45,483 bases of DNA, taken from NCBI GenBank assembly GCA_003670865.1, contig QWQJ01000070.1, positions 1 to 45,483 of the forward strand. Direction: 5' to 3'. Source of the stretch: Planctomycetota bacterium (GTDB lineage Bacteria; Planctomycetota; Planctomycetia; Pirellulales; UBA1268). The notes below the pieces were generated by a model. That model did not search any database and was not told where the DNA came from. It saw only the letters and a list, made by a program, of their open reading frames with translations. The position numbers were made by a program, and so were the translations under genes. Positions 3,829 to 43,722 of the stretch are shown here, piece after piece. Within the stretch, counting starts at the first letter, position 1. Every line of letters starts with the position of its first letter.

Positions 3829-4860
3829 ATGCATCACTTCCCTCTTTTGATCTTGCGGTCAGTTTTCTTGATGGTTTCCATCGGGATTGCCGTGCTGATC
3901 TTCAATTCTCAAGCCATGCAGGAAGCGCCGCAGTGGGTGCCATGGGTCGTGCTCAGCGGCATGGTCGCCCTGCCCCTGACGGTGATTGCCGTCGATGGAT
4001 CGATCCGCAAAAAAAATCTGGCGGTCATCACGGCGGTTTATTTCGGGCTCTTGATTGGTGTCTTTCTCAACTACATTGCCATTTTAGCCCTCACACCAAT
4101 TTTGCCGACAAGCCCTCGTGATCCCATAACGACCTGGCTGCCGCTGATTCTCGGTATGGTTTTTTGCTACATCTGCACGAGTCTCCTGATCCAGACTCGA
4201 GACGATTTTCGATTCCTCATTCCCTATGTTGAATTCGCCCGCGATGTGCAGGGCCTCCGCCCGAATATTTTAGATGCCAGTAGCGTCTTCGATGGCCGAA
4301 TTGCCGATCTGGCTGAAGCCGGCATCTTTGAAAGTCGGTTTGTCATGCCGGCGTTTGTTGTCGATGAAATCCAGGCGGCGGCTGATTCTTCCGAAAAACA
4401 GCGTCGCCTGCGGGGCCGCCGAGGCCTCGATATTCTGGCCCGTCTACAGGCTGGCAAATACATCAACATTGAAGTGCTCTCGACCGACGAACCCAATGGG
4501 AACGAATCGGCCGAATCACGGCTGGTGACAACGGCACAAAAACTTGACGGACGGATTATCACCGTCGATGCCGATCTCTTGAAAATTGCCAGTCTGAGGA
4601 AGGTGCTCGCGATCAACATCAATGATCTGTCGCTGGCACTCAAGCCGACATTTGTTGCGGGCGATCTGTTTGATGTGAAACTGACCCGGGCCGGCGACGA
4701 GACCGGCCAAGCCGTCGGCTATCTCGACGACGGCACAATGGTGGTAGTCGAAAATGCCCGCGAGCAGATCGGCCACAACCTTTCTGTGAGCGTGACAAGT
4801 ACGCTGCAAACCGCGGCCGGGCGATTGGTCTTTGCCAAACCAGAAGTCTCGCGAGCCTAA
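3829..4860 (+). CDS. membrane-anchored PIN/TRAM domain protein (YacL-like)
   Basis: 343 aa. About four N-terminal hydrophobic helices are followed by a PIN-like core ('ILDASSVFDGRIADLAEAG...VVDEIQ') and a C-terminal TRAM-like segment ('FDVKLTRAGDETGQAVGYLDDGTMVVVENA'). Confidence 0.75.
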   Translation: MHHFPLLILRSVFLMVSIGIAVLIFNSQAMQEAPQWVPWVVLSGMVALPLTVIAVDGSIRKKNLAVITAVYFGLLIGVFLNYIAILALTPILPTSPRDPITTWLPLILGMVFCYICTSLLIQTRDDFRFLIPYVEFARDVQGLRPNILDASSVFDGRIADLAEAGIFESRFVMPAFVVDEIQAAADSSEKQRRLRGRRGLDILARLQAGKYINIEVLSTDEPNGNESAESRLVTTAQKLDGRIITVDADLLKIASLRKVLAININDLSLALKPTFVAGDLFDVKLTRAGDETGQAVGYLDDGTMVVVENAREQIGHNLSVSVTSTLQTAAGRLVFAKPEVSRA

Positions 4861-4912
4861 ATCTTTCCCCCGTGAGAAACGCTGTGGGCCGACTGAGAAG
4901 GTATACTTTCTC

Positions 4913-7465
4913 ATGATGCACTTCGTACCATCATCGACGTTCGCTCGCCACCGGCTCACGCCGCTTGCCACGCTGAAATGCATTTTGTGCCGGGCGGAGC
5001 GAAGGACAGTCGGGCCGTATTGGGTCGTCTTAGCCCTGGGCATGAGCGGGCTCTTTTTCTGGCTGCCGAACCAGTTGGCATCGGCTTTAGAACCGGACCC
5101 GCCACATGCCATAGCTAGTGCCTCAGGAACCCCGCATCCCGGTCTTAACGTCTACCGCAACCACTGCCAACGCTGTCATGGCGAAAACGGCGGCGGCACA
5201 AAGGTTTTTGCCAAACCCCTTATAGGCGATCGTTCGATCTCCCATCTGGCCGCCTCGATTGACGAAACAATGCCCGAGGACGACCCCTCATTGGTCACGG
5301 GACTCGCCGCCCAGCAAGTCGCCGAATACATCCACGGCGCCTTTTACTCGGCTATCGCACAAGACCGCAATCGACCCGCCCGACTCGAACTCTCCCGGCT
5401 CACCGTGCGGCAATATCAAAACACCGTTGCTGACATCGTCGGCAGCTTTGGCCGTCGCGACCCGGGCATCCCAGCAGGCCGTGGGCTGCGTGGCGAATAT
5501 TTCCGTGGCCGTGACTTTAACAGGCTGTCCCGCGTGCTTGAGCAGATCGATCCGCAGGTGAGCTTCGACTTTCGCAGCGAGGGCCCTGATCCCGAGCGAT
5601 TCGAGCCCAACCGCTTTGCCATTCGCTGGACGGGGTCGATCGTGCCCCCTGAAACAGGCACCTATGAGTTCATCGTTCGCACAGAGCACGCCGTCAAACT
5701 CTTTGTTAACACCGCATCCTATGCATCGCCGCTGGTGGATGAGTGGGTTCAATCGGGGGACAGCCGCGAGCACAGAGGTTTTATTTTTCTCCTCGGCGGC
5801 CGTTTGTACCCCCTGCGGCTTGATTTTTCCAAAGCCAATCAGGGGATTGATAACACGCGTCATGAGCACCTCACGCAGGCGTCGATCGAACTCCTCTGGA
5901 AGCCGCCGCAGGGGGTTCTGGAAATCGTGCCGCAGCAGTGCCTGAGCCCCGTTGAAAGTCCGCCAACATTCGTCGTTCAAACGCCCTTTCCCCCTGACGA
6001 TCGTAGCATCGGCTACGACCGCGGCAGCAGCGTCTCAAGCGAATGGTTTGCCGCTACGACTGCCGCCGGCACCGAGACGGCCGATGGGGTGGTAAAACAG
6101 ATTGAGCACTTGGCCCATGTCAAACGAGATGCGGCGAATCGAGCCGAAGGACTCCAGAACTTTGCGGCAACATTTGCCGCTCGCGCGTTTCGCCGACCGC
6201 TTTCGGACGATCTTCGCCAACTGGTAGTCGATCGGCACTTTGCCACTGCCCCAGACATCGACACGGCACTCTTTCGCTCGCTGCTAGCGGTTCTCGGCTC
6301 GCCTCGATTTCTTTTTTGTGAGCCAGATTCGCGACAGAATCGATCAACTTCCGCTGAGAGTGCCTTGAAAATCTCTGCTTTCGAAACCGCCTCTCGACTC
6401 TCGTTTGGGCTCTGGGACTCCATCCCCGACGAGCCTCTCTGGCAGGCAGCCGAACAGAATCAGCTCGCCACCCCAGAGCAGGTGGCCGGGCAAGCGGAGC
6501 GGATGGTCAACGACCGTCGCACGCGGACCAAGGTTCGCGATTTTTTGATGGCGTGGCTCCGCGTTGATCACAACCCAGAAATCCTTAAGGACAAATCACT
6601 TTTTGTCACCTTCTCGCCGCAGATTGCCGCCGACATGCGTCGCAGCTTAGAACTCTTTTTAGATGATATTGTCTGGGGACCGGGCTCCGACTTTCGCCGA
6701 CTCTTCAGCGATGACGAGGTCTATCTCAACGGCCGTCTGGCGTCGCTCTACGGTGTCGCACTGCCGGCCGATGCGCCGTTTCAACGCATTCGGCTGGACG
6801 ATGGCAAGCGGGCCGGCCTGCTCTCGCATCCTTACATGATGAGCGTGCTGTCCTACGCAGGTTCCACGTCGCCGATTCATCGCGGCGTGTTCCTGGCCCG
6901 TAGCGTGCTGGGCAATGTGCTTCGACCCCCTCAGGAAGCCGTCTCGCCGCTGGCCCCGGAACTGCATCCCGACCTGACCACAAGGCAGCGAGTAGCCCTC
7001 CAGACAAGTGCCGTTGCCTGCCAAACCTGCCATACTTTGATCAATCCTCTGGGATTTGCCCTCGAGGAGTTTGACGGCATTGGTCGCTATCGCCGCACAG
7101 AACAAAAAGGGGGCCTTGAAAAACCGATCGAGCCCTCCGGCTCCTACCAGCCTCGCGCCGGAGGAATTGCCACATTCTCTGGTGCTCGCGAATTGGCAGC
7201 CTCTCTGGCAAACAGCCGCGATGCCCAGGAGGCCTTTGTCCAATCACTTTTTCACGCGCTGGCGAAGCAACCGGTGAGAGCCTGGGGCCCGGAGACGCTC
7301 GAGTCTTTGCGGCAATCGTTTGCATCACACGACTACAATATCCGGCACTTGCTGGTTGCCATCATGACCGTGGCCGCCACTCCCCCCGGCCCAGCCAGCC
7401 AAGGGGCCGAGCAAGCGGCTATCGAACTGATCCTACAGCCATCTCTCGCAGGCCCATTGCCATGA
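4913..7465 (+). CDS. DUF1592/DUF1588/DUF1585-family protein with N-terminal cytochrome c and PA14-like domains
   Basis: Haem-binding CxxCH '[10 protein letters not shown]' is present, with a PA14-like segment '[12 protein letters not shown]...[19 protein letters not shown]'. The C-terminal signatures are '[15 protein letters not shown]' and '[25 protein letters not shown]'. The track start at 4832 is TTG; I chose the first ATG at 4913, which is preceded by GAGAAGG. Confidence 0.8.
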
Positions 7466-8790
7466 CCCATCCCTCTTTCACTCGTCGCGACCTCTTGCGC
7501 CGGCTTGGAATCGGCCCGGCTATGCTGCCGTTTCTCAGTAATTTGCCCAGCGTGGCAGTGGCCAATCCGACAAAACACAGCCAGCGATTGATCATTGTCT
7601 TTAGCCCTGACGGCGTTGTCCGCAACAACTTTTGGCCAGCAAAGCCTGGGCCATTGGCGGGCCGAGAACTGCCGCCCATCCTCAAGCCCCTTGAGCCGTT
7701 CAAAGACAAAATCCTGACGCTCAAAGGCATTAACGACAAGGTGCAGGGCGACGGTGACCGCCACATGCGCGGCATCGGCTGCCTGTTGACAGGAATCGAG
7801 CTCTTTCCTGGTAATGTTCAAGGTGGCAGCGACACGCCGGCCGGCTGGTCCAGTGGGCTTTCAATTGATCAGGAAATTAAAAACTTTCTCCAGGAGCAGG
7901 CTGCCACGGCCACGCGTTTTGGTTCGCTGGAGTTTGGCGTGCTGGTGCCGAGTAAGGCTGACACATGGACGCGGATGATTTACGCTGGCCCCAACAAGCC
8001 CATCGCGCCGATCGACGACCCCTACCAGATGTTCAACAAGCTCTACGGCCAATTCAAAGACCGCCAGAGCATGCACAGCGTGCTTGATGATGTGGGTGAG
8101 GATTTGGCAACTCTCGCAGCATCGCTGCCGGCTGAAGACCGGCGGATTCTCGAAGAACACGCCTCGCTGGTGCGCGCGTTTGAAAAAGAACTCGCCACTC
8201 ATCATGTCGCGATGGCCCATGAGGTGCCGGTGCTGGAGCAGGGTGTTATCGAACACAACGATACGATGCCAATAATCAGCCGGATGCAGATCGAACTTAT
8301 CGTTGCTTCGCTGGCTGCTGATTTTACTCGGATCGCCAGCCTGCAATACACCAACTCCGTCGGTCAGCCTCACATGACATGGCTCGACATCAAGGAAGGT
8401 CAGCACGACCTCTCGCACGAACCCAACACGAACGTGGACGCGCAGCTAAAACTTACGAAGATCAATGCGTGGTATGCCGGAGAAGTGGCCCACCTCGCCC
8501 AGCGATTGGCCGACACTCCCGAACCGGGGGGCGATGGCTCGCTCCTTGACCACACCACCATCCTCTGGACCAACGAATTAGGAGAGGGCAACTCCCACTC
8601 TCTCGAAGACATTCCGTTGGTGCTGGTAGGTAATGGACTCGGCTGGGCAACCGGCCGCGCCGTGCAACTGCCAGGCGTGCCGCACAACAGGCTCCTTTTG
8701 TCGCTGGCCCACGCGATGGGCCAAAGCGATCTCAAACGCTTCGGTAACCCTGACTACTGCGGCGACGGTCCTCTGACAGGTCTCACCTGA
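7462..8790 (+). CDS. DUF1552 domain protein with Tat-type signal
   Basis: 442 aa. The twin-arginine-like N-terminus is '[15 protein letters not shown]'. Its ATG overlaps the upstream stop as ATGA at 7462-7465, the classic partner arrangement with DUF1592 proteins. Confidence 0.8.
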
Positions 8791-9957: not shown

Positions 9958-12915
9958 ATGGCCGCAGCAGATGCCGTCCTCAAAGCTCAGCGGTCGAGTG
10001 TCTGCACGGCCTGCTCCATGCTCTGCGATGACCTGCTGCCGTGGAGCACGCGAGAGGAACAGTCCTGCGCGTTTGCGCAAAAAGCGTTCGCGGCGGCGAG
10101 ATCGCTCGCTCTTTCTGCCGACGCGTGGTCGCTCGGCCAGCCAGTTTCTCGGCAGGCTGCTCTTATTCAGGCGGCTGATTGGCTCTCGGTGTCCCGGCGG
10201 GTGCTGGTTACGGGCCTTGCCGGAGCGACCCTGGAAGCGATTGGCCAAGCCTGCGATCTGGCGGAACTCCTCGGTGCGGCAATCGATGCCGGAGCAGCGG
10301 AGTCCGCCATCACAGCAGGCCCGACTGTGGCCCGCGTGGGCGCGGTGACGGCTGGGTGGGAGGAACTTCGTGACCGCGCTGATTTAGTTCTCCTTTGGTT
10401 CTGCGATCCGACCCTTTCTCACCCTCGCTTCAGTGAGCTTTTTTTACTTCCGCAAGGCAGCAACTTTACCCGCCGCACGATTGCAGTCGGCCCCAACTCT
10501 GTATTAGGGCTCTGCCCCACGCACCGCCACTGTCCCTTGCCAAGCGGCATGGCGGTTGCTGCAGCCAGAGCATTGCAAGCAGGCCTTACGCGTCCCAATG
10601 CTCAGCCAATTCCAGCAGATCCCCTCAGCCACGCAGCCTCAATGACTGTTTGTGTAAGCCTGCTTGTGGAGGCCATCACCGCAGCCAAGTGCGTGGTAAT
10701 CGTGACGGGCGGTTGTACTGGCAGCGATCTTGAAAAAGGCCACTCTGTCGATCCTCTCGGATTAAAACCGTGGAGCGTAGGGCATCTGGTGCGAGCGATG
10801 GCCCACGTGAAACAGGCTTTTGAAATCCCCTTGGGGCCAGGCATTTGGGCCAGCGGTGCCAATGCAGCCGGTGCGGCGGCCATCTGCACATGGCGCTACG
10901 GCGCAGCGGGTGCCATTGCCCGCGCGGATGCCTTGGGCAGCGAGTTTCTCCCGGCCGAAGCCGACGCTGCCAGATTGATTGCACGCGGCGAGGTTGACTG
11001 CGTGCTGGCGGTAGGACCACTCGAGAAAGCCCTCGAAGCGGCAATTGCGGGGCGTCGCGAGTCGATTTCTGTCGTGCGTGTGAGCGATAGACTGTCACCG
11101 CAAGCCAACAGCCAGCCAACAATTCATCTGCTGTGCGCTAGCACGCTGCTGGCCACATCGGGCACGATGATCCGCGAAGACGGCCGGCAGGTCGTGATTG
11201 AGGCCCAGCCTCGAGCGATCCTCTCTCAAGCGCCGGCTGAAAACGAAGTCGCCTCATTACCGCAGATGGACGCGTTACTCGCAGAGCTGATCACTTGCGT
11301 GGCTGCCTGCCCGAATCGTGTTTCTGATTTGTCCCGCATCACATCAAAAGCCGGAGCCCCAGGCCGAGCTCGTATCCCAGCAAAGACGGCAACTGCGGCC
11401 CAGCGGCTTTCTGAAAACAAGACTTCGGCGTTGCCGGCATTTGTGCTCACAGGTGGCACGATTCACGATCCGGCCAACCAACGAGATGGCGTTGTCGCTG
11501 ACATCTGGGTGGAAAACGGAAAAATTATCGTCCCACCCGCTGAATCCTCACGATTCACTTCTATCGATGCCACCGGTCTTGTTGTCATGCCCGGAGGTGT
11601 CGATCTCCACAGCCACGTGGCCGGCCCGAAAGTTGGGGCCGGTCGGCAGATTGCTCCCTCGCTTAGTCGGGGCAGACCGGCGGCTGTGCCCACGATTCAA
11701 GCCACTGGCGGTCTCTATGCATCGCTGGGCTACACCACTGTCTTCGATGCGGCCATTGCCACGAGCGCCGCTGCAATGGCCCACCGCGAACTCGACTCAC
11801 TGCCGATTCTCGACAAGGGAATCTATTTGCTCGCTAGCGATGATGCCGCTGTGCTGACGGCTCTGGCGGCCAACGATGCCAACCGAGTCGAGCGACTCCT
11901 CGCCGAGACGATCACAGGCTGTCGTGGCTGGGCTGTCAAAGTGGCTAACCCTGGCGGGTCAGTATTTTGGAAGCACGGCCGTCGGGGTGACCACCACGAT
12001 CTCGACGCAGCCCTGCCCATCGGCAAATCTCTCACGCCTCGTCTGATTCTAGAGCGACTAGCGCTAGCCGTGCAGGCGATCGGCCTGCCGCATCCGCTCC
12101 ATGTTCACACTGCTAACCTTGGCCTGCCCGGAAATTATTCCACGCTGCTAGAAACGATGCGCACCTTCGACGGTATCCGCGCTCATCTGGCCCATGTGCA
12201 ATTTCATAGCTACTCAGGCGGCTCGCAGGATCCCGGCACATTTGGCTCTGGAGTTGCACCGCTCGTGGAATGGTTCAACGCCCACGAGGAACTCACGCTT
12301 GATGTCGGCCAAGTCCTCTTTGGCGACACGGTGGCTATGACCGGCGATTCCGCGGCCGCCGAACACCTCGCCCACGCCACCGGCATGCCCTGGGTTTCAC
12401 ACGACTTGTCGCTGGAAGGAGGCTGCGGCGTGCTACCGATCAGCTACCGCGAAAAGAGCCTCATTCATGCCTGGCAGTGGGCCATCGGGCTGGAATGGTT
12501 TTTAACCGTGCGCGATCCGTGGAGGCTTGTGCTTTCGACCGATCACCCCAACGGCGCACACTTCTGTGCCTACCCACTGCTGATGCGGTTACTGGCTGAC
12601 GAGCCCTTTCGCCGCGAGGCCTTCGCGAGAATCCATCCGACTGTGCGCACGCGCAGTCCGCTAGCAAGCATTCGCCGGGAATACTCCCTGCAGGAACTGT
12701 GCATCATCACGCGGGCAGCGCCAGCCAGAATCGCGGGGCTCCCCCAGAAGGGACACCTCGGCATTGGCGCTGATGCCGACATCGTGCTCTATCGTCCCGA
12801 CGCCGACATCTCGCGGATGTTCTCAATGCCAGCCAAGGTTTTCAAAGCGGGCGTCCTTGTCGCCGAAAATGGCCATCTCCGCGACCTGCCTCGGGGTCGC
12901 ACGCTCTCGCGATGA
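9958..12915 (+). CDS. fused FhcB/FwdB-like + FhcA/FwdA-like protein (formyltransferase/hydrolase complex or formylmethanofuran dehydrogenase subunits B and A)
   Basis: Single 985-aa ORF. The N-terminal ~455 aa begin with 'CTACSMLCDDL', as in subunit B. The C-terminal ~490 aa carry the amidohydrolase subunit-A signature 'LTGGTIHDPANQRDGVVADIWVENGKII...IDATGLVVMPGGVDLHSHVAGPKVGAGRQ'. A Lys/Ala/Pro-rich linker spans about 11323-11430. Confidence 0.7.
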   Translation: MAAADAVLKAQRSSVCTACSMLCDDLLPWSTREEQSCAFAQKAFAAARSLALSADAWSLGQPVSRQAALIQAADWLSVSRRVLVTGLAGATLEAIGQACDLAELLGAAIDAGAAESAITAGPTVARVGAVTAGWEELRDRADLVLLWFCDPTLSHPRFSELFLLPQGSNFTRRTIAVGPNSVLGLCPTHRHCPLPSGMAVAAARALQAGLTRPNAQPIPADPLSHAASMTVCVSLLVEAITAAKCVVIVTGGCTGSDLEKGHSVDPLGLKPWSVGHLVRAMAHVKQAFEIPLGPGIWASGANAAGAAAICTWRYGAAGAIARADALGSEFLPAEADAARLIARGEVDCVLAVGPLEKALEAAIAGRRESISVVRVSDRLSPQANSQPTIHLLCASTLLATSGTMIREDGRQVVIEAQPRAILSQAPAENEVASLPQMDALLAELITCVAACPNRVSDLSRITSKAGAPGRARIPAKTATAAQRLSENKTSALPAFVLTGGTIHDPANQRDGVVADIWVENGKIIVPPAESSRFTSIDATGLVVMPGGVDLHSHVAGPKVGAGRQIAPSLSRGRPAAVPTIQATGGLYASLGYTTVFDAAIATSAAAMAHRELDSLPILDKGIYLLASDDAAVLTALAANDANRVERLLAETITGCRGWAVKVANPGGSVFWKHGRRGDHHDLDAALPIGKSLTPRLILERLALAVQAIGLPHPLHVHTANLGLPGNYSTLLETMRTFDGIRAHLAHVQFHSYSGGSQDPGTFGSGVAPLVEWFNAHEELTLDVGQVLFGDTVAMTGDSAAAEHLAHATGMPWVSHDLSLEGGCGVLPISYREKSLIHAWQWAIGLEWFLTVRDPWRLVLSTDHPNGAHFCAYPLLMRLLADEPFRREAFARIHPTVRTRSPLASIRREYSLQELCIITRAAPARIAGLPQKGHLGIGADADIVLYRPDADISRMFSMPAKVFKAGVLVAENGHLRDLPRGRTLSR

Positions 12916-12922
12916 GGGATCG

Positions 12923-14014
12923 CTAGGCCATCGCCCGCTCCACTGCCACAATCTGCCGTATTACCAAGTCTGCTGCTGAAAAGTTCTGTATCGCCCTGGC
13001 TCGCGCCGCCCCGCCATACCGCGCCCACAAGGCATCATCCTCAAGAAGGGCCATCGCCCGCCGGGGAAATTCGCTCTCTGGATCGGCAGCCACAATGCGG
13101 CCCGTTTCCTCTGAGACGATCAACTGGCCGGCTGCATCGCTGGCCACGGCAACCGCACCCACGCCGTGAGCCATGCCATCCAGGATCGCACCGCCGTAGG
13201 CAACGTCACCCGACTGCCAAACCAGTCGTACCTGTGACAACAGATCCTCAACGCAATCGCACTCTGAAACCAGATGCAGCCGCTCAGCGAGTTGCTGCAC
13301 TCGCGCCCGTCGCAAGAGTTGCAGCCGGAGCCGTCCCGATCCAATCAGCACATGTTCTAAATCACGATTGACAACTCCAAGCTGATCGATCGCCCACAGC
13401 AATCGATCCAAACGCGATCGGGCTTCCAGAGGCGCGACGCAAAGGGTCCACTTTTTGTTGGCATCGAGTCCGAGTCTGGCAGCCAACTGCTGCCGTGAAA
13501 GCCGAGCTTCTGCCGCCGCAACGATCCCCGGCGGAATCAACTCAAGTCTCCCGGCGGCCACACCCGCCCGCTGGCAAGCCTGCTGCACTCCCGGCGATGT
13601 GGCAATCACGCAATCTGCCAAACGCAGTGCCCACGCTGTTGCCAGACCTTTAGGCGGCCTCGCAAGATGACTGATCAGCCGCACGCCGGGGCAGTAGGCC
13701 TTAGCCAGAACTCCCGCTTGAGCCTGCGAGCTTCCCCAACAAAAGATCACAGCGGGTCGAACGGCTCCCACCACTCGCAGCAGATGCCTGACGGCTGTCA
13801 GATCAACGCTGGTTCGCCCGTTGAGCCTGTGAATGCCAAACCCTGCCCCGTGAAGTCGCAAAGGCACAGCACCGCCGGAGGTTGTCACGGCCACTTGCAC
13901 CGTCCAGCCCGCATGGCGAAATCCCTCGGCCACAATTTCGATTTGCCGACCGGTGCCGACAGGGTCAAGTCCCCGAATCACCATCAGAATCGATTTGGGA
14001 ATCACGCTCTTCAT
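12923..14014 (-). CDS. GT4-family (group 1) glycosyltransferase
   Basis: The N-terminus 'MKSVIPKSILMVIRGLDPVGTGRQIEIVAEGFRHAGWTV' is typical of the family, and a C-terminal 'EETGRIV' E-x7-E-like region is present. The 470-aa track ORF is an upstream extension that overlaps hpt. I chose the ATG at 14014. Confidence 0.75.
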   Translation of the reverse strand: MKSVIPKSILMVIRGLDPVGTGRQIEIVAEGFRHAGWTVQVAVTTSGGAVPLRLHGAGFGIHRLNGRTSVDLTAVRHLLRVVGAVRPAVIFCWGSSQAQAGVLAKAYCPGVRLISHLARPPKGLATAWALRLADCVIATSPGVQQACQRAGVAAGRLELIPPGIVAAAEARLSRQQLAARLGLDANKKWTLCVAPLEARSRLDRLLWAIDQLGVVNRDLEHVLIGSGRLRLQLLRRARVQQLAERLHLVSECDCVEDLLSQVRLVWQSGDVAYGGAILDGMAHGVGAVAVASDAAGQLIVSEETGRIVAADPESEFPRRAMALLEDDALWARYGGAARARAIQNFSAADLVIRQIVAVERAMA

Positions 14015-14531
14015 GAATGTCGGCCGGCTCCAATTCCGCAAGGTAAGGCAGGTGTCGCCACGCACCGTTGTAATCGAGACCATACCCGACAGCGAACGCA
14101 TCGGGAATGTCGAAACCGACGAAGTCTGGCTTAATCTCCACTTCCGATCGCCCTTGTTTGCGTAGTAAGACAAGTGACCGCACCTGTTTGGCACCTCGGC
14201 AACGCAGTTCCTTGACCAGAGCCTCCATCGTACGACCCGTGTCAAATATGTCGTCCACAAGCAGAACCTCTTGCCCGGCGAGATCGGGCAATAAGTCAAG
14301 CCGCAGCTCGAGGCGTCCGGGCGTTGTGGTGGCACCCCGGTAACTGCTAGCCCACACCATGCTCACGCGGACGGGGCCCTCCAATCGTCGGATCAGATCC
14401 GAAACCAGTACGATGCTGCCGGTGAGCACTCCCACGACAGTGATTGGCCGCCGACCAACATCATCCCGTACTCGTTGGGCGAGCCGAGAGATTCCCTCAG
14501 CCAGTTGCTCGGCGGTGAGCAAAATCTTCAT
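13965..14531 (-). CDS. hpt: hypoxanthine(-guanine) phosphoribosyltransferase
   Basis: It has the PRPP loop 'VLLVDDIFDTGRTM', plus 'VGFDIPDAFAVGYGLDYNG..RHLPY'. I chose the ATG at 14531 (MKILLTAEQ...). Confidence 0.85.
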   Translation of the reverse strand: MKILLTAEQLAEGISRLAQRVRDDVGRRPITVVGVLTGSIVLVSDLIRRLEGPVRVSMVWASSYRGATTTPGRLELRLDLLPDLAGQEVLLVDDIFDTGRTMEALVKELRCRGAKQVRSLVLLRKQGRSEVEIKPDFVGFDIPDAFAVGYGLDYNGAWRHLPYLAELEPADIHEERDSQIDSDGDSGT

Positions 14532-15452: not shown

Positions 15453-18400
15453 TTATGTGCCGGGCCTAGGCCGGTTGACTGGTGTCGCCGGCGTCGCCCC
15501 CATACCGGGTAGTTTCATGCCGGCACCCCCAGCACCACCGAGTTGATCCAGATCGAGAAACCTCGCGTCGTCCACATCCACGCGGTTCTGTGATCGCCAG
15601 TAAAGAATCTTGCCAGCCGATGCACTCGACGGTGCTGCTCCCACACGCAGTTGCCTAAAAAGCTGGGCATCGCTGCGGCCATCTCCTTCAAAGACAAGCA
15701 AGTCTTTGGCCTCACTCCAGGTCAACCGCGCGCTGCGGGCCGTAAACGACTCCCCTTCCACAAGCACGCTGCCCCCAGCGATCAATTCCAATGACGACCG
15801 CCGTTGCCCCGGACTGGGCGGCGTCTGAGCAACTCCCAGCACATCGCTATTGATGCTGACGGCCCGCGGCGGCAAACCCGCGGCAGCGTGTGGATCGAGC
15901 GTATCTTCCCACGTGGCTACAGGTCCCCAGATCGCTTCCACTCGCTGGTGAAATTCCATTGTTCGAGTGTTGATATTGCCCCGCATGCCCCGCTGAAAAT
16001 CGACGCCCAGGTAGGTCAACTCGTCTGGTCGCGGCGGCGGCACAGTTGGCGTTTGGACCGCTCCACTGGGCCCTTGAACAGCCTGGTTTTGAGCCCCCGA
16101 CAGCGACATGCCCGGAGCTTGTCCAAACCGCGTGCTGGCCAACCTACCGGGGCCATTGCCGGATAGATTACCCGTTGCCCGGTCGAGCAAAAGATCGCGG
16201 ACATAAAGATTTTCAACCGACTTTGAGCCGTCGTTACCTGTTGAAGTGCTCTGAATCCGCACGCCACTGCCGCAGGCAACTCGCGCCACATCGGCACGCT
16301 GCGCCGAACGCTGCTGGTTATGAGCGCTAAAATCAATCGGCTGCGTGAAAATCACATCCAGCGAACCGGCCCGTAGAGTCGTTGTGCCGCTGGTGGTGAC
16401 AACGCGATCAATGAATCTTGCGGTCAGTCCGTCAAATTCCATCCGACCTTGCCAAACCACATCGAGCGTGGCAGGCGGTGACCCAGGCACAGGCGGCTTG
16501 GGCGCCGCAGCGGACGCACCTGCCATGCCGAGCGACTCAAGTCCACTCATCCCGTTGGCCATCGGGAGCTTGAGTCGGCCGGCTCCATCGACAGTGAGTC
16601 GATTGCGACCACGATCAAATTCGATCAGCGGCCCGTCTAAGTCGACCCCCCTGCCCTTCACCTGAGCAGGCCGACCCGAGACAACAGCGCGGGCATCAAA
16701 CCGCGTCGCTCGCGAGAGCTGAAGTTGATCGCCGCGTATTTCAAGCGACGCATCCGGGGTGGAATCGCTCGCCAGTCCGGCCGCTGGCAGTCCCACTGTC
16801 AGTGGCTCCTCTACCAGATGCACCTGTCCTTCCAGCGACATCTCTTCAAGTTGATTGCCATCCGGCGACATGCTCACCAATCCCCGCACCAGTGCCCCGG
16901 TGGCCACCAGCTTACCTCGCGTGGGTGGGGCCGGCGAAACCTTGGCCGGTACCTTGGCAGGCACCGTGACCGGCACAGCGGCAGGCGGGGCGACAGGCGG
17001 AGCCGCCGCCACGGCCACGACCGGCACCGCTGGATGACGAAACCAAAGCTCCATACGATCGGTGCGCGCGGTGAGTTGTTCAACATCAATCTCGACCGTG
17101 CCACGAGCCAACATCCGTGCCGGCCGCACGCCAGAGAGATCCGGGCCGGCACTCTGACGGCCTGCTGGAATTGGGAGGGATTGTGCGGCGAGTGGCTTGG
17201 ACTGATTGGCGAACGTCAGCCAAAGATGCATTTCAGCCGCGCTCAGCCGGCCTTGCGTTTCAATCGACACCTCGGCCTCTCCGGCGATCGAGGCGACATG
17301 CCCCTCGCCATCGGGCCGCATCCGCAGCCACTTCCGCCACCGGGCTTGCAGGGGTGGCGATCCCTCCGTTTTAGTTCGTAGCCATCCTGGTCCTACGGCC
17401 ATCAGTGACCCGGGATCGCCAGCTGGGCCCGGAGTATAATCGATTGATCGTGCCTCCATTTCCATGCCTCGTGCCACCAACGAGACCGGTTCTTGTCCAT
17501 CCAGTAAAATTCTGCGCGTGGCGATCTCATAGCCGAGCCGAGCAGCCCGGGCCTCCAGACCTGCCCCACTGCTGCGGGCCACGACCGGTGTGCCGCGAGC
17601 CTGGATTTCCTTTGGCACAAGTCCACCGCGAGCAGGGTGCCCTTGTGTTGCCGCTGCGATCTCGATGGCGGTCGCGGTCGATGGTAGCTCTTTGCGGCCC
17701 AGTACGATGCCCAGCATTTCACAGGCCAATTGATCGCTCGAGCCGCCCGGCATTGTCCGCATCACGTCCACGTGGTCTTCAAATGTGATCACATTGGCCG
17801 CCACATTGAGACAGAGGCTGCCGCGGCAACTCACAAGCACCGGCGGGGCCTCGGCAGAAGCCTGCGGCTGGGCTGCGATAGCAGACGCCACTTGCCCCGG
17901 CATTAAGCCGCCTTCGAGCCCTTCTAACCGCATAGTGACATCGCGATCGAGTCGGATCGAATCAACGCCACCAATATTGGGGCCTTGATCGGCTGGCCCC
18001 GCCCGAGGCAAGAGCTTGGCCACCATCGCCCGACCGCTGCCGCTAGAACGCCCGTACCGAAATTGCACCATTTCATTGGTGCGCAGTTCCATATCCTCTA
18101 GCTCCAAGTCACGGGTGACAATTTCAATGTCGTCATCAACCCCCGGTGCGGTTGGCGTGCCGCGCACCGTGACCTGTCCGCGCAGGCTACCGCCGATCAG
18201 TTTGGCGAGTCTTCCCTGTCGCAGATCGAGTGGCTCATCAAATTCCAAGACCGCGCCTTGCGGCGCACGCAAAATCAGTGTGCGACCTACCGAAGCCTCG
18301 GTCGAGACCCGATTGCGATCGGGTAAAATCACGAGAGTGCAGGGCACGAGATTCACGCGACCGTCGGGCAGCGAGTGGTATTGCTTAAAAAGTAAGCGCA

Positions 18401-18650
18401 TCTGCCGGCTCTCCAGCACGATTGGGTCTTCGCGTTCCCAGGAGCCCACCGGAAATACATCCCCGATGGCCGCGAGTCGATGGTCGGCGCGGGCCCTGAT
18501 GGCAGCCGCCTCCTCGGGAGTCGGCTCGATCGCCGTCACCGTATCGTATCGGCGAGGCTCAACCCAAGGCACCACCGCCAGCCGATAAAAACCCGCCAGA
18601 GCCACAACGATGAGAAACACCCGAGCCGTGCGTCCAAAGCGATGTTCCAT
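15453..18650 (-). CDS. giant N-terminally membrane-anchored protein of unknown function (possible multi-module OstA/LptC/LptA-like protein)
   Basis: The uninterrupted ORF gives 1065 aa from the ATG at 18650; the track start at 18665 is TTG. It has one N-terminal TM helix, 'ARVFLIVVALAGFYRLAVV'. Repeated beta-strand segments are separated by a Pro/Ala/Val linker encoded at 16920-17033. It starts 35 nt after kdsC. The functional call is inference only. Confidence 0.7.
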   Translation of the reverse strand: MEHRFGRTARVFLIVVALAGFYRLAVVPWVEPRRYDTVTAIEPTPEEAAAIRARADHRLAAIGDVFPVGSWEREDPIVLESRQMRLLFKQYHSLPDGRVNLVPCTLVILPDRNRVSTEASVGRTLILRAPQGAVLEFDEPLDLRQGRLAKLIGGSLRGQVTVRGTPTAPGVDDDIEIVTRDLELEDMELRTNEMVQFRYGRSSGSGRAMVAKLLPRAGPADQGPNIGGVDSIRLDRDVTMRLEGLEGGLMPGQVASAIAAQPQASAEAPPVLVSCRGSLCLNVAANVITFEDHVDVMRTMPGGSSDQLACEMLGIVLGRKELPSTATAIEIAAATQGHPARGGLVPKEIQARGTPVVARSSGAGLEARAARLGYEIATRRILLDGQEPVSLVARGMEMEARSIDYTPGPAGDPGSLMAVGPGWLRTKTEGSPPLQARWRKWLRMRPDGEGHVASIAGEAEVSIETQGRLSAAEMHLWLTFANQSKPLAAQSLPIPAGRQSAGPDLSGVRPARMLARGTVEIDVEQLTARTDRMELWFRHPAVPVVAVAAAPPVAPPAAVPVTVPAKVPAKVSPAPPTRGKLVATGALVRGLVSMSPDGNQLEEMSLEGQVHLVEEPLTVGLPAAGLASDSTPDASLEIRGDQLQLSRATRFDARAVVSGRPAQVKGRGVDLDGPLIEFDRGRNRLTVDGAGRLKLPMANGMSGLESLGMAGASAAAPKPPVPGSPPATLDVVWQGRMEFDGLTARFIDRVVTTSGTTTLRAGSLDVIFTQPIDFSAHNQQRSAQRADVARVACGSGVRIQSTSTGNDGSKSVENLYVRDLLLDRATGNLSGNGPGRLASTRFGQAPGMSLSGAQNQAVQGPSGAVQTPTVPPPRPDELTYLGVDFQRGMRGNINTRTMEFHQRVEAIWGPVATWEDTLDPHAAAGLPPRAVSINSDVLGVAQTPPSPGQRRSSLELIAGGSVLVEGESFTARSARLTWSEAKDLLVFEGDGRSDAQLFRQLRVGAAPSSASAGKILYWRSQNRVDVDDARFLDLDQLGGAGGAGMKLPGMGATPATPVNRPRPGT

Positions 18651-18685
18651 GGGTGATGCTTCCAACGAGCGGAGCCGATTTCAAA

Positions 18686-19234
18686 TCAAACGATCGAATA
18701 CCGGCGCACGATCGTCTCCCAACTTCCCCGGGCATGCAGCAGTTGCTCAATGACTTCACGCACCGCCCCCCGTCCCCCGGGAAGGCGTGTGACAAGGGCT
18801 GCTACTCGGACCACATCTGCACAGGCATCGGCCACCGCCACGCCGATGCCACAGCGGATCATGACAGGCACATCAGGCAGGTCGTCGCCGATGAAGGCTG
18901 TTTCTTCCCAGGAAAGACCGCACTGCGCCACGATCTCTGCCGCCACTTCCAGCTTGTTGACAACTCCCTGCCGGACAATGCCAATGCCTAGCTCTGCCGC
19001 GCGGATATCGACAATCCGGCTCGATCGCCCCGTCACGATGCCAGCTCGGCCGCCAGCTTCCTGCCAGAGTTTGAGACCCAGACCATCCCGAATATTGAAT
19101 GTCTTGTGCTCGCTGCCGGCGTCGGTCCATGTCACGCCGCCATCGGTGAGCACACCATCAACATCCAGCAGCAGAAGTTGCACTCGTGCGAGGCGATGCT
19201 CGAAAGACTCGGATCGATTGATCGCAGTGATCAT
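18686..19234 (-). CDS. kdsC: 3-deoxy-D-manno-octulosonate 8-phosphate phosphatase (HAD-IIIA)
   Basis: 182 aa from the ATG at 19234. The HAD motif I is 'LLLLDVDGVLTDG', followed by 'FIGDDLPDVPV' and 'GGRGAVREV', typical of KdsC. It lies directly downstream of kdsD. Confidence 0.8.
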   Translation of the reverse strand: MITAINRSESFEHRLARVQLLLLDVDGVLTDGGVTWTDAGSEHKTFNIRDGLGLKLWQEAGGRAGIVTGRSSRIVDIRAAELGIGIVRQGVVNKLEVAAEIVAQCGLSWEETAFIGDDLPDVPVMIRCGIGVAVADACADVVRVAALVTRLPGGRGAVREVIEQLLHARGSWETIVRRYSIV

Positions 19235-19262
19235 GATTGTTGTTCCTGCCGACAGCCTCCAT

Positions 19263-20309
19263 TCAAGCGGCCGCCAGCCTCTGAGCATCGGTTGAATTCT
19301 CAAGCAGTTCCTGGGGTACAAGCCCCACAAGATCGACGATGTCAAGCAGACCGACTGGCCGGCCTGCGTCATTCACAACCGGCAATTCACTCAGTCGTAG
19401 TGACTCTAAAATAGCAACCGCATCGCGGAGCCTTGTGCCCGCCGCAACCGTCTTCGGCCGACTCGTCATAACGCATTCAATCGCTGCGTCGATTGCAGCG
19501 TCATTGCGCCGTTCAAAGAGTCGGGCCAGATCGCTGTCGGTAAAAATTCCTGCCAATGCCCCAGCATTGTCGATGATCATCACAGCACCCGTGCGACGGG
19601 CTGGCAGCGGCCGGGCAAAGACGGCTCGGACCGTGTCACTGGGCTGCGCGATACGGCATTGAGAGAGGGGTCGCATGGCCTCCTCGACAAGCGTCAACTG
19701 CCGACCGAGACTGCCACCGGGATGCCGAACGGCAAAGTCTTCGTGTGTAAATTGCCGTAGACTACTTGTCGCCAGTGCTAAGCCATCCCCGATCGCCAAA
19801 AGCAGCGATGTGCTGGTGCTGGGGGCCAGCCCCAGCGCGCAAGCTTCCTGCACGCGGCCTGTGACGACAACCACGTCGGCAGCGCGGCCCAGAGTGCTGG
19901 CGACTGTCCCTGTGATTGCCACGATCGTGTTTCCAAGTGATGCCACATGGGGGAGCAGACGCGTGACTTCTTCGGTCTCTCCCGACTGGGACACAGCCAG
20001 CACAACATCGTCACGTCGCAGGCTGCCCAGATCACCGTGCATCGCCTCGGCCGGGTGCAAGAAATGGCTTGGAGTGCCGGTCGAAGCAAGCGTTGCTGAA
20101 ATCTTGCGGGCCACGAGGCCAGCCTTGCCGATCCCCGTCACGACAACACTCCCCGTACAGGCTTCGATGATCCGCACTGCACGGCAGAACGAAGCGTCGA
20201 GGCATTCAGCCGCTGCCCCAATGGCGGCAGCTTCGGCGCGGAGGATCTCGCGTCCACGCGCAATCACGTCTTCATCTGTCGCAGTCGCGGTCGAAACAAA
20301 CTGATCCAT
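19263..20309 (-). CDS. kdsD: arabinose-5-phosphate isomerase (SIS + tandem CBS)
   Basis: The SIS core is 'VVVTGIGKAGLVARKISATLASTGTPSHFLHPAEAMHGDLG...VSQSGETEE', and it is followed by two CBS-like repeats. I chose the ATG at 20309 (MDQFV...). Confidence 0.85.
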   Translation of the reverse strand: MDQFVSTATATDEDVIARGREILRAEAAAIGAAAECLDASFCRAVRIIEACTGSVVVTGIGKAGLVARKISATLASTGTPSHFLHPAEAMHGDLGSLRRDDVVLAVSQSGETEEVTRLLPHVASLGNTIVAITGTVASTLGRAADVVVVTGRVQEACALGLAPSTSTSLLLAIGDGLALATSSLRQFTHEDFAVRHPGGSLGRQLTLVEEAMRPLSQCRIAQPSDTVRAVFARPLPARRTGAVMIIDNAGALAGIFTDSDLARLFERRNDAAIDAAIECVMTSRPKTVAAGTRLRDAVAILESLRLSELPVVNDAGRPVGLLDIVDLVGLVPQELLENSTDAQRLAAA

Positions 20310-20477: not shown

Positions 20478-21521
20478 CTACGACTGGGTGTATCGCTGGG
20501 CCATTTCTGCCAGTGTCACGATTGGTATCTTCCTGGCGTTTCCGGCTTGGCCAAATTGGACCATTCGCTCGGCACAAATTTTCTTCATCGCATCCCGTGC
20601 TGGCTTGAGATAGTCGCGTGGGTCAAACTTATCCGGGTATTCCCAGAGCACCTTGCGAATGGCGGCTGTGATGGCCATGCGGTTGTCGGTATCGACGTTG
20701 ATCTTACGGACTCCGTGCTTGATGCCTCGCTGAATCTCTTCGACCGGCACGCCCCATGTCTGCGGCATCTTGCCACCGTAGCGATTGATCATGTCCTGCA
20801 GTTCTTGCGGCACACTCGATGAGCCGTGCATCACGAGATGGCAATTCGGCAATCGGCGGTGAATCTCCTCGATCCTAGCCATGGCTAGCACTTCACCATC
20901 GGGCTTGCGGGTAAACTTATACGCACCGTGACTGGTGCCGATAGCGACGGCCAATGCGTCGACGCCTGTGGCTGCCACAAAACGCTCCGCCTCATCGGGA
21001 TCGGTGAGGAGTTGGTCGTGAGAGAGCGTACCCTCGGCACCGTGGCCGTCCTCAGCTTCGCCGTGGCCACTTTCCAGAGAACCCAAGCAGCCCAGTTCAC
21101 CCTCCACCGAAACTCCCCTTGCATGAGCTGTCCGCACAACATCCGCAGTCACTTTCACATTATAAGCGAAGTCGGCCGGTGTCTTACCGTCATCCTTGAG
21201 TGAGCCGTCCATCATCACGCTGGTAAAACCGTTGTCGATGGCACTGGAGCAGGTGGCGGGTGAGTTGCCGTGGTCTTGATGCATGGCCATCGGAATCGTC
21301 GGATAGAGTTCGGCGGCCGCGATCATCAGATGCCGTAGATAGTTGTCTTGACTGTAACTCCGCGCACCTCGCGAGGCTTGGACGATCACGGGTGAATCGG
21401 TTTCCTTGGCCGCTTCCATAATCGCTTGAATCTGCTCCATGTCATTGACATTGAAGGCGGCAAGGCCGTAGCCGTTCTCGGCAGCGTGATCGAGCAGAAT
21501 GCGCATGGGAACGAGCGGCAC
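20478..21521 (-). CDS. fba: class II fructose-1,6-bisphosphate aldolase
   Basis: The N-terminus reads '[53 protein letters not shown]', and 'HLVMHGSS' is also present. Family N-termini start MxLVPMR, so the GTG at 21521 (giving M-PLVPMR) is more likely than the ATG at 21506 or the track start at 21638. Confidence 0.9.
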
Positions 21522-21652
21522 GGGGTGGGCTCCAAGGAGTGCGGGGAAAAAAAAGGAACGCGGATCAAGAGTCGTGGGAAGACAAATCATAAGTCGTTTT
21601 GGACCGCACGACAAACAGCAGCAAAGAGCGGGCGGCATGCTAGACTCTTTGG

Positions 21653-27666: not shown

Positions 27667-28500
27667 ATGCCACTCTTCATCACCCCACTCACTCTGCCGG
27701 CAAATGGGCCGCTCTGGATCGATCTCTCCGGCATCACGCCCGATCGGCTCGCCGATTTGTCGCTGAGTCAGATTGAACGATTGCCTCTTCTGGCCGACGG
27801 TCGCGCGAGTGAATTTGGGCTGCTGTTTTCCGCGAACCGAAGCACAGATGGCAGCGATGGGGCCATCGAATGCGTTGGCGACTTTTCTCGCGTGCACCGC
27901 ATCGGTGCAAAAATGACTATCGGCACAATCGTTGTCCAAGGCGATGCGGGCCGACACGCAGGCGAGGCGATGACAGGCGGCACGCTGACAATCACAGGCG
28001 ACGCCGGGGATTGGTTAGCGGCTGAAATGACTGGCGGCACGCTCCGGGTTGGTGGCCGAGCGGGCGACAATGTGGCTGGTGCCCTGCCGGGGAGTCGCGC
28101 TGGGATGCAGGGTGGGGTGGTCGTAATCGCCGGTGACGTTGGCTGCCTAGCTGGAGCGAGGATGCGTCGCGGCATGTTGGCGATTGGCGGCGACTGCGGC
28201 GCGGGCGTTGCTTTTGAAATGAGGGCCGGCACCGCCCTTGTGGCCGGCCGCATTGGCGAGAACCCCTGCCTGGGCATGAAGCGTGGCACTTTGATTGCTC
28301 TGGCGAGCATTCCCGCCTTATCTCCGACATTCCAGCGTGGTAGCGTCTGGTCGCCAACATTCATGCCGCTTCTGGCAAACCGCTTGGCACGGGCCCACTT
28401 TCAACCCGCCAAATCCGCCGGGGATCTTTGCCAAGGCAAATGGCAGCAGTGGCACGGCGACACGCTCTACGGAGGTCGAGGAGAAGTTTTTCATCGATGA
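27667..28500 (+). CDS. fhcC: FhcC/FwdC-like subunit C (GXGXG repeat beta-helix)
   Basis: 277 aa. It contains repeated 'GDAGxxxGxxMxGGxLxxxG' units ('GDAGRHAGEAMTGGTLTITGDAGDWLAAEMTGGTLRVGGRAGDNVAG...'), which are diagnostic of subunit C of formylmethanofuran dehydrogenase and the Fhc complex. Confidence 0.8.
   Translation: MPLFITPLTLPANGPLWIDLSGITPDRLADLSLSQIERLPLLADGRASEFGLLFSANRSTDGSDGAIECVGDFSRVHRIGAKMTIGTIVVQGDAGRHAGEAMTGGTLTITGDAGDWLAAEMTGGTLRVGGRAGDNVAGALPGSRAGMQGGVVVIAGDVGCLAGARMRRGMLAIGGDCGAGVAFEMRAGTALVAGRIGENPCLGMKRGTLIALASIPALSPTFQRGSVWSPTFMPLLANRLARAHFQPAKSAGDLCQGKWQQWHGDTLYGGRGEVFHR
28284..28299 (+). promoter_or_regulatory. sequence identical to the sigma54 -24/-12 consensus (TGGCAC-N5-TTGCT)
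   Basis: TGGCACtttgaTTGCT was read directly, with GG at 28285-86 and GC at 28297-98 (GG-N10-GC). It lies inside the fhcC coding sequence, and a chance match is plausible. Confidence 0.25.
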
Positions 28501-42782: not shown

Positions 42783-42813
42783 GAACTTTTTTTAGCACTT
42801 GCTGTGTGGTGCG

Positions 42814-43713
42814 TCAGAATCGATTGCGACGACTGACGAGATATTCCATCAGGGCACGGTCAAACTGCATGCTTGTGTCGAGGGGTACGTAGTCGATTCC
42901 TCCGTGAAAGCAAAATGTTCGGTAGTCTTCCCGAAAGGCCTGCACGCTTGCCACATACTGACGCCGGGCGGCATCGGCATCGATCACAAGACGGTCCTGC
43001 GTTTCTGGGTCAGTGAAGTCGACCATCCCGTCAAATGGAAATTTCACTTCTGCCTCATCCAGAATATGAAACACAATCACATCGTGGCCGCGGTGTCGAA
43101 GTCGCAGCAGGGCGTCTCGAATCGGCTCGGGGTCAGCGAGCAGATCACTGAAAATCATCAACAGCGACCGGTGCCGCAGCATCGCCGCCGCTTGCACAAG
43201 GCTTTTACCAATATCGGTTTTCCCTGATGGCTTGACTTTGGAAAGGATGGAGAGCACCTGCGCAATCTGCGATCGCTTCGAGCGAGCCGGCAGGCTGGCG
43301 TGCAGTTTTTCATCAAACACCATCAGCCCGCAGGGGTCCTGCTGGTGAACCATCAACCAGCAAAGCGCTGCTGCCAATGAGATTGAGTAGTCGAGCTTGG
43401 TGACTTGCTGCTGGTAGGTGTAGGCCATCGAAGCGCTTGTATCGATCACCAGATAGCCAGTGATATTTGTCTCCGCCTCAAACTTTTTGACATAGTGCTT
43501 GTCGGTCTTAGCGTAGACCAGCCAGTCGATGTCTTTGGGATCATCGCCCTGGGTGTAGCGGCGGTGCTCGCTAAACTCGACCGAAAAGCCCTGGTAGGGA
43601 CTGGCGTGCAAGCCCTGTAAAAAGCCCCGCACGATGAACTGGGCGCGCAAGTCCAGCCTCGCGATCTGCCGCACCACTTCCGGCTTCAGATATTCCTCGA
43701 CCGCGCGGACCAT
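42814..43713 (-). CDS. DUF58 protein (vWA-like MoxR partner)
   Basis: 299 aa. It has the DUF58 signature 'FSEHRRYTQGDDPKDIDW' and 'YLVIDTSASM'. It starts 9 nt after the moxR stop. Confidence 0.85.
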   Translation of the reverse strand: MVRAVEEYLKPEVVRQIARLDLRAQFIVRGFLQGLHASPYQGFSVEFSEHRRYTQGDDPKDIDWLVYAKTDKHYVKKFEAETNITGYLVIDTSASMAYTYQQQVTKLDYSISLAAALCWLMVHQQDPCGLMVFDEKLHASLPARSKRSQIAQVLSILSKVKPSGKTDIGKSLVQAAAMLRHRSLLMIFSDLLADPEPIRDALLRLRHRGHDVIVFHILDEAEVKFPFDGMVDFTDPETQDRLVIDADAARRQYVASVQAFREDYRTFCFHGGIDYVPLDTSMQFDRALMEYLVSRRNRF

Positions 43714-43722
43714 GCGTCCCTC

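Follow-up and report, generated by a model that had tools for sequence, protein, structure and literature searches.

In Escherichia coli, kdsD, kdsC, lptC, lptA, and lptB form one locus (PMC6164715). LptC is a bitopic inner-membrane jellyroll that takes lipopolysaccharide (LPS) from LptB2FG, and head-to-tail stacks of LptA jellyrolls form a groove that leads to LptD and its N-terminal jellyroll; how many LptA units are present in vivo is not known (PMC6164715). Here, we analyze a stretch of 45,483 nucleotides (nt) from a planctomycete of the order Pirellulales (contig QWQJ01000070.1 of assembly GCA_003670865.1; hereafter, the window), in which kdsD and kdsC are followed by a single gene for a protein of 1,065 amino acids (aa). 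We refer to these as the giant gene and the giant protein. An earlier reading of the letters of the window, hereafter the original prediction, proposed that the protein is a multi-module bridge of Lpt type. Our analysis indicates that it is probably the planctomycete counterpart of LptC and LptA fused in one chain, that is, an LptC-(LptA)n bridge.

Planctomycetes make LPS and possess LptD (PMC3422733; PMC12673574, citing Mahat 2016), and their periplasm is enlarged and variable (PMC5394234). A survey with hidden Markov models (HMMs) describes the Lpt system in Planctomycetes as "largely reduced" (PMC8871954). Planctomycetes are not among the phyla aligned in a survey of LptC across phyla (PMC9544173), and a 2025 review of the phylum makes no mention of Lpt (PMC12673574). 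The original prediction knew of no description of such an architecture. In full-text literature on planctomycetes and Lpt proteins we found no paper that describes it, although an earlier description may exist, and the architecture is partly anticipated by automated annotation. Automated pipelines tag some members of the family as LptA or as carrying LptD_N, and several have been named "lipopolysaccharide export system protein LptA" by the pipeline of the Joint Genome Institute (JGI).

The Giant Gene Occupies the Position Downstream of kdsC

Gene order in the window resembles that of the proteobacterial operon up to the end of kdsC. The kdsD gene (19263..20309, minus strand) encodes an arabinose-5-phosphate isomerase of the KpsF/GutQ family with SIS and CBS domains (TIGR00393, 1.5e-72, 244 bits vs a cut-off of 203.7). 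It is followed by kdsC (18686..19234, minus strand), which encodes the phosphatase of 3-deoxy-D-manno-octulosonic acid (Kdo) 8-phosphate (TIGR01670, 1.7e-45, 154.7 bits vs a cut-off of 106.95). The kdsC stop codon is separated by 35 nt from the ATG of the giant gene, which lies on the same strand (15453..18650, minus strand, stop codon included) and has 1,065 codons between the ATG at 18650 and the stop codon at 15453-15455. The open reading frame (ORF) translation and the NCBIfam models bear out the coordinates, spacing, and shared strand given in the original prediction. The mechanical ORF of the giant gene extends to a TTG at 18665; the ATG start is supported because M1, H3, and R4 are invariant in close homologs. 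The mechanical kdsC ORF likewise reaches farther, to an ATG at 19372 (18686-19372, minus strand, 228 aa), and overlaps the end of kdsD. KdsC models begin aligning at residues 11-18 of the 182-aa version, which makes a start at the ATG at 19234 more likely.

Downstream of the giant gene, the next gene encodes a convergent esterase (PF00756; 14571-15428, plus strand) that is 24 nt from the giant-gene stop codon. The large ORFs scanned in the window include none that is lptB-, lptA-, or lptC-like. The original prediction was thus right that no lpt-sized gene follows and that the esterase comes next. The position of the giant gene is that of a bridge gene, directly after kdsC, as in the proteobacterial kdsD-kdsC-lptC-lptA-lptB operon. 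Like lptA it is downstream of kdsC, and like lptC it is the first gene after kdsC, but it is not followed by lptB.

The giant ORF is a real gene rather than a chance ORF because it has many homologs. A word-index search yielded 303, of which the top 120 are 63-100% identical to the giant protein and 1,016-1,086 aa long. In a HMMER search with a profile of 24 sequences, representative clusters (at the 50% identity level) numbered 2,603 at E<=1e-3, of which 1,353 also reached E<=1e-30. Full-length proteins of about 940-1,270 aa make up most of the top 150, and a few are shorter fragments. Named members of the family are from metagenome-assembled genomes (MAGs) of Pirellulales, Planctomycetia, or Planctomycetota, and one member is from the cultured Lignipirellula cremea (P0419), where it is annotated "hypothetical protein." A scan of genome contigs with an alignment of 14 sequences recovered only relatives that are 54-75% identical, all from uncultured MAGs. 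Some kdsD-kdsC-giant loci (L007, L015, L016, L019, L024, L029, L035, L038, L071, and others) come from records titled "Candidatus Kuenenia" or "Chitinophagaceae," which are probably mislabeled metagenome bins.

Adjacency to kdsC is conserved across the family. We compared the KdsC and KdsD proteins of the window with 90 loci by tblastn, and 87 of the loci have upstream sequence. In 86 of these 87, kdsC is immediately upstream of the giant gene, and kdsD is upstream of kdsC wherever the contig extends far enough. The arrangement of kdsC and the giant gene is kept even in loci L084 and L086-L090, where local matches to the window protein are 29-35% identical and the other neighbors are wholly different. 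In locus L085, kdsD is directly upstream of the giant gene and kdsC is absent. Two further relatives beyond the 90-locus set (loci L091 and L092) show the same linkage: P0425, with ∼28% identity to the window protein over 98% of its length, is encoded in a kdsD-kdsC-giant arrangement, and P0421, with ∼38% identity over most of its length, directly follows kdsC. Across the family, a single giant gene occupies the slot downstream of kdsC, and no gene for an ABC ATPase is present downstream of it in the gene tables of relatives that were read.

Other neighbors recur more loosely. A class II fructose-bisphosphate aldolase gene (20478-21638, minus strand; TIGR01521, 2.7e-184) is just upstream of kdsD in the window, and an aldolase is again near kdsD in close and distant relatives (L001, 5173-6216; L087, 6834-7829; L089, 6834-7838). 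A gene for a glycosyltransferase of family 4 (GT4; 12923-14335, minus strand) is just past the convergent esterase. GT4 genes also adjoin the giant gene in distant relatives that otherwise have different neighbors (L085, 15316-17781; L086, 13708-14826; L090, 13245-15550) and in L001 (14480-15571). The recurring GT4 may be an LPS-core glycosyltransferase that is loosely linked to the locus.

The Family Matches LptA and LptD_N Profiles

Sequence profiles place the family, rather than the single window protein, with LptA and the N-terminal domain of LptD. We scanned 46 diverse members singly against Pfam (E<=1) and NCBIfam, with cut-offs of 20.4 bits for PF03968 (LptA/LptD_N), 21 bits for PF06835 (LptC), and 71.7 bits for TIGR03002 (LptA). 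PF03968 is matched by 41 of the 46 members, with a best E value of 1.5e-11. Scores above the cut-off include those of P0131 (42.5 bits), P0129 (41.6), P0126 (37.3), P0132 (33.9), P0184 (29.5), P0133 (28.7), P0127 (28.3), and P0128 (27.4), and nine further members score 21.8-34.6 bits. In one scanned set, eight of nine members match at E<=0.0015, as do nine more members, and most of these exceed 20.4 bits. The more specific models are matched less strongly. TIGR03002 is also matched by 41 of 46 members, but all are below the NCBI cut-off (highest, 40 bits vs 71.7), and by this sequence measure the giant protein does not qualify as an LptA equivalog as NCBI defines it. The LptC model TIGR04409 is matched by 23 of 46 members, all below the NCBI cut-off, and PF06835 by 11 of 46, almost all below the cut-off; one exception is P0408 (24.7 bits vs 21). 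Judged by sequence, the giant protein does not pass as LptC.

Matches of the family to Lpt models map to two regions of the window protein, residues ∼290-480 and ∼880-1000, which lie in the modules designated M2 and M5 below. The family consensus of residues 263-545 scores 23.8 bits on PF03968, aligned at 345-406; for residues 870-1040 the consensus reaches 17.2 bits, aligned at 933-994. The first aligned stretch (residues 345-406; 17433..17618, minus strand) corresponds to positions 46-108 of PF03968 and contains the peptide LEARAARLGYEIATRRILLDG..., one of those that the original prediction singled out as resembling Lpt jellyrolls. All of the peptides that it quoted are present (residues 286-299, 365-405, 636-647, 675-695, 969-998, and 1013-1026), and those at residues 365-405 and 969-998 overlap the stretches aligned with PF03968. 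Matches to PF03968 above the cut-off are located in the C-terminal region, M5, in P0131, P0132, P0184, P0408, P0409, P0411-P0413, P0415, P0416, and P0419.

Searches against sequences in the PDB give a similar result. A family profile of 106 sequences (E<=10) retrieved seven matches, of which six are LptA chains (best, 8onu_A, E 1.3e-3) that align at profile positions 351-429, in M2. The remaining match, at E=6.8, is to a capsid protein. A shallow profile of 24 sequences retrieved only a chance match to tubulin. Comparisons of individual modules with LptA and LptC of E. coli by hhalign gave probabilities of at most 12%, with single sequences and a shallow LptC profile as the references. The LptC profile stayed shallow because all sequences retrieved with E. 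coli LptC in a word-index search were from Enterobacteriaceae and at least 80% identical.

We conclude that the family belongs to PF03968 at the family level because relatives and the consensus pass the Pfam threshold and share the predicted fold; taken by itself, the window sequence falls short of that threshold. The original prediction anticipated an OstA/LptC-like profile match, and the expectation is borne out for 41 of 46 relatives and for PDB sequences, where LptA was the only Lpt protein retrieved, but not for the window protein. The sequence of the window protein itself matches no Lpt model, and its relationship to Lpt proteins runs through relatives, the family consensus, and structure.

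The Predicted Fold Is a Jellyroll of Lpt Type

A model of the giant protein made with AlphaFold2 (AF2) from 106 diverse homologs has a mean predicted local distance difference test score (pLDDT) of 84.9 and a predicted template modeling score (pTM) of 0.68. It replaced a poor model based on 24 close homologs (pLDDT of 58). The model has a helix at residues 2-30, a second helix at residues 45-61, and then 52 beta-strands over residues 77-1032. Low-confidence loops break up the run of strands at residues 257-260, 559-565, and 849-864, and a disordered tail begins at residue 1038.

Foldseek comparisons of the model with the PDB identify components of the Lpt bridge. Matches have a probability of 1.00 for LptA (2r19_A; target-normalized template modeling score [TMt] of 0.67, root mean square deviation [rmsd] of 3.7 Å), LptH (4uu4; TMt of 0.64, rmsd of 2.5 Å), and LptC (3my2; TMt of 0.70, rmsd of 3.0 Å). 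The TMt of LptA matches ranges from 0.60 to 0.67, and the module or modules superposed on 2r19_A are not reported by the search. By E value, full-length LptD chains are the best matches (7e-8 to 1e-5), yet their TMt is 0.17-0.21. A TMt of ∼0.2 amounts to about one jellyroll of superposable residues, which implies that the N-terminal domain of LptD is shared and its barrel is not. In Pfam, PF03968 is common to the giant protein family and the LptD N-terminal domain. LptD differs in having a 26-strand C-terminal barrel and an outer-membrane location, whereas the giant protein lacks the PF04453 barrel and is predicted to have an inner-membrane anchor. At least part of the chain is thus modeled with the twisted beta-jellyroll fold of Lpt proteins, in which antiparallel strands make a V-shaped groove, and not with a beta-helix, the outcome that the original prediction had named as contrary to its proposal.

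Other folds were considered and rejected. For AsmA/TamB, there was no match to AsmA, AsmA_2, TamB, or DUF490 profiles in the 46 members, and no such structure is among the top 50 Foldseek matches of the 106-sequence model. For an LptD barrel, PF04453 is matched by 0 of 46 members, and the TMt of full-length LptD is low, as given above. For a beta-helix or adhesin, the predicted fold is instead an Lpt-type jellyroll, and matches to teneurins (probability of 0.16-0.33) and Rhs (0.05) are of low probability.

One Anchor and Serial Beta-Modules

The giant protein combines a single membrane anchor with a series of beta-modules. Coordinates of all segments that follow are on the minus strand. A hydropathy scan identifies only one hydrophobic segment (residues ∼8-31), which coincides with the modeled N-terminal helix (residues 2-30; 18561..18647) and upholds the single transmembrane anchor that had been proposed. 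Conservation also supports the helix, as Y22, P28, E31, and P32 around it are near-invariant. We infer that it is an uncleaved inner-membrane anchor. It is followed by a juxtamembrane helix (residues 45-61; 18468..18518), assigned by DSSP in the 106-sequence model.

We divided the remainder of the chain into modules at low-confidence loops of the AF2 model. Module N1 (residues 63-243; 17922..18464) has 10 beta-strands, a pLDDT mostly above 85, and a location directly after the anchor, which is the position of LptC. Module M2 (residues 270-539; 17034..17843) has 16 strands in sub-blocks at 270-320, 344-481, and 508-539, and includes the LptA-like core to which the family's matches with PDB LptA, PF03968, TIGR03002, and TIGR04409 are mapped. 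A low-confidence linker rich in Pro, Ala, and Val (residues 540-579; 16914..17033) separates M2 from M3 and varies in length; its pLDDT is below 50 at residues 559-565. M3 (residues 580-698; 16557..16913) has 7 strands, M4 (residues 728-843; 16122..16469) has 9, and M5 (residues 878-1033; 15552..16019) has 10. M5 is the C-terminal module that resembles LptA and LptD_N. The protein ends in a disordered tail rich in Gly and Pro (residues 1034-1065; 15456..15551), with a pLDDT below 50 at residues 1038-1065 and a length of 1-53 aa across the family.

Modules M2 to M5 are related to each other, indicating internal repetition. In hhalign comparisons, M2a and M4 match at 92.5%, M2 and M5 at 91.7%, M2a and M5 at 82.7%, M4 and M5 at 67%, and M3 and M5 at 63%. 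N1 has no relation to any other block of the giant protein detectable by hhalign. Across the 106 homologs, lengths of beta-modules are kept (N1, 177-202 aa; M3, 104-123 aa; M4, 111-132 aa; M5, 150-179 aa), and loops and linkers vary. The Pro/Ala/Val linker ranges from 27 to 135 aa and may serve as a hinge or as a spacer that crosses the peptidoglycan layer. The original prediction located the linker well: the segment is present (residues 541-576; nt 16923-17030), though its boundaries were drawn 3 nt too wide at each end (16920-17033).

The number of units can be estimated from these data. Because LptA structural matches span ∼140 alignment columns and the beta core has ∼790 residues, the giant protein is estimated, on its predicted structure, to hold about five units of the size of LptA (range, four to six). 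The proposal of a multi-module fusion therefore stands insofar as several Lpt-type modules are in one chain, but the chain has about five modules rather than the two halves envisaged. The proposed likeness of the N-terminus to LptC stands for anchor topology; N1 itself has no LptC-specific signal, and matches to LptC models are mostly in M2.

Cysteines are few and conserved. The giant protein has only five, of which Cys104, Cys275, and Cys310 are nearly invariant over the 106 homologs. In the model, Cys275 and Cys310 are in strands of one sub-block and could form a periplasmic disulfide.

A Proposed Fused Bridge and Its Alternatives

A fused LptC-(LptA)n bridge is the most economical reading because the giant protein combines the topology of LptC, modules of LptA/LptD_N type, internal repetition, and an operon link to Kdo synthesis. 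Relative to LptA (YhbN; PF03968, TIGR03002) of Proteobacteria, the beta-jellyroll fold is the same and family matches are in modules M2 and M5. However, LptA is a soluble single domain of ∼160 aa that forms head-to-tail oligomers, and the giant protein has approximately five joined units in ∼1,000 aa and a transmembrane anchor. Relative to LptC (YrbK; PF06835, TIGR04409), the giant protein likewise has a single N-terminal transmembrane helix and then beta-rich periplasmic modules. But LptC has 191 aa and one jellyroll, and the anchor-proximal N1 of the giant protein is without an LptC sequence signal.

The fused bridge would operate as follows. The giant gene would be co-transcribed with the Kdo-synthesis genes kdsD and kdsC. 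Its product would be a bitopic inner-membrane protein whose transmembrane helix anchors about five OstA/LptA-type jellyrolls (residues 63-1033) in the periplasm. In the first step, LptB2FG would take LPS, the presumed substrate, from the inner membrane and pass its lipid A moiety to the anchor-proximal module. In the second, the acyl chains would slide in the hydrophobic groove of the serial jellyrolls, which would have to be continuous from module to module. In the third, M5, the C-terminal LptA/LptD_N-like module, would dock edge-to-edge with the N-terminal jellyroll of LptD, and LPS would continue to the outer membrane. With the units covalently joined, their number in the bridge would be fixed, and by unit count five would be ∼2.5 times the arrangement of LptC and one LptA discussed for E. 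coli.

A more far-reaching form of this proposal is that this one polypeptide makes up the whole LPS bridge of the periplasm, with LptC and all LptA fused and no free LptA. Such a bridge would have a fixed stoichiometry, a fixed length, and a variable Pro/Ala/Val hinge, and would set or report the distance between inner and outer membranes at LPS export sites in cells whose periplasm is otherwise enlarged and variable. We consider this form about as likely as not. The length of the protein may match the enlarged periplasm of planctomycetes.

Several observations weigh against a fused bridge. The window protein as a whole matches no Pfam or NCBIfam model at E<=0.1, nor any NCBIfam model at E<=10. 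When its five modules were compared separately with Pfam at E<=10, no Lpt family was retrieved, and the only two matches were weak and to unrelated families (YabP, E 0.31; DUF7406, E 0.14). The sequence of N1 cannot be linked to LptC, LptA, or any other module, either in a Pfam scan of the consensus or by hhalign, and its probability against an enterobacterial LptC profile, which is shallow, is 1%. The matches to LptC models are located mainly at residues ∼290-385, in M2, and not in the module next to the anchor. Last, none of the loci examined has lptB, lptF, lptG, or lptD within 8-10 kb of the giant gene.

Some of these observations favor a partial bridge, in which the giant protein is only an extended LptC- or LptA-like part and free LptA, a separate LptC, or both are encoded elsewhere and complete the path to LptD. 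N1 is without an LptC signature, and lptB, lptF, and lptG are unlinked to the giant gene at every locus. But no second OstA-like ORF is present in the large ORFs scanned in the window or in the 8-10 kb flanks of relatives, and the slot downstream of kdsC is filled by one giant gene across the family. In addition, the Lpt set of Planctomycetes is described as reduced in published HMM surveys (PMC8871954). We regard a partial bridge as unlikely, though it is the foremost alternative to the fused bridge.

A different possibility is that the giant protein is a conduit or tether with an Lpt fold and another role, carrying a different glycolipid or phospholipid or acting as a spacer between the inner and outer membranes, rather than being the essential LPS bridge. 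LPS as the substrate is, after all, purely deduced. AsmA-like proteins (TamB, YhdP) and eukaryotic bridge-like lipid transfer proteins have a similar design, with one N-terminal anchor and a long beta-groove in a single chain, and the first, lower-quality model weakly matched the LPD-3 complex (9cap, probability of 0.35). However, this match was lost from the top 50 with the high-confidence model, and the giant protein differs from AsmA-like proteins in the lack of any profile or top-50 structural match. Its genetic link is to Kdo synthesis, and the tight and nearly universal association with kdsD and kdsC points to Kdo and hence to LPS. Matches in sequence and structure are specific to LptA, LptC, and LptD. 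Another cargo or role is therefore improbable.

That the giant protein is not of Lpt type at all, but a surface protein of the beta-helix or adhesin type, a member of the AsmA/TamB family, or an LptD-like outer-membrane barrel, is scarcely credible: the window protein has no family match of its own, its C-terminal half has 26 strands as does the LptD barrel, and teneurin and Rhs shells are in the Foldseek list, but M5 matches PF03968 in relatives and is homologous to M2, teneurin probabilities are just 0.16-0.33, the strands contain many Arg, Asp, and Glu residues, and the protein has an N-terminal transmembrane anchor and a disordered Gly/Pro C-terminus in which a barrel-type terminal signal is absent.

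Other Genes of the Window

Several other genes of the window are of a planctomycete character. An ORF of 985 aa (9958-12915, plus strand) encodes a formylmethanofuran dehydrogenase in which a subunit B-like region (residues 15-417; TIGR03129, 1.9e-26) is fused to subunit A (residues 496-983; TIGR03121, 5.8e-158). At a distance of 15 kb is a GXGXG (FwdC-like) ORF (27667-28500, plus strand), and together these ORFs are a one-carbon (C1) transfer gene set typical of planctomycetes. At 4832-8790 (plus strand), a gene for a cytochrome-domain protein with PSCyt, PSD, and PA14 domains (877 aa) is followed by one for a DUF1552 (HXXSHH) protein. This pair is a planctomycete-specific gene set and is present in locus L001 too. 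A cluster of BatA, von Willebrand A, and DUF58 genes (38131-44748, minus strand) resembles the Bacteroides aerotolerance (Bat) operon.

Implications for LPS Export in Planctomycetes

How many LptA units form a bridge, and how the length of the bridge is matched to the width of the periplasm, are open questions in E. coli (PMC6164715). An anchor and about five jellyrolls in one chain would be a bridge of defined stoichiometry that could be modeled, purified, and imaged. A natural one-chain Lpt bridge would be notable to specialists and useful for questions of bridge stoichiometry, though it stays within the Lpt paradigm. The window protein and many of its relatives are now annotated as hypothetical, and the kdsC-linked family could be given a name. 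If the fused bridge is true, it would explain why surveys find Lpt "largely reduced" in Planctomycetes (PMC8871954) despite the presence of LPS and LptD. A reduced set is to be expected if LptC and LptA are hidden in a divergent fused protein. The giant protein would, in that case, stand in for the missing LptC and LptA in a phylum with an enlarged and variable periplasm.

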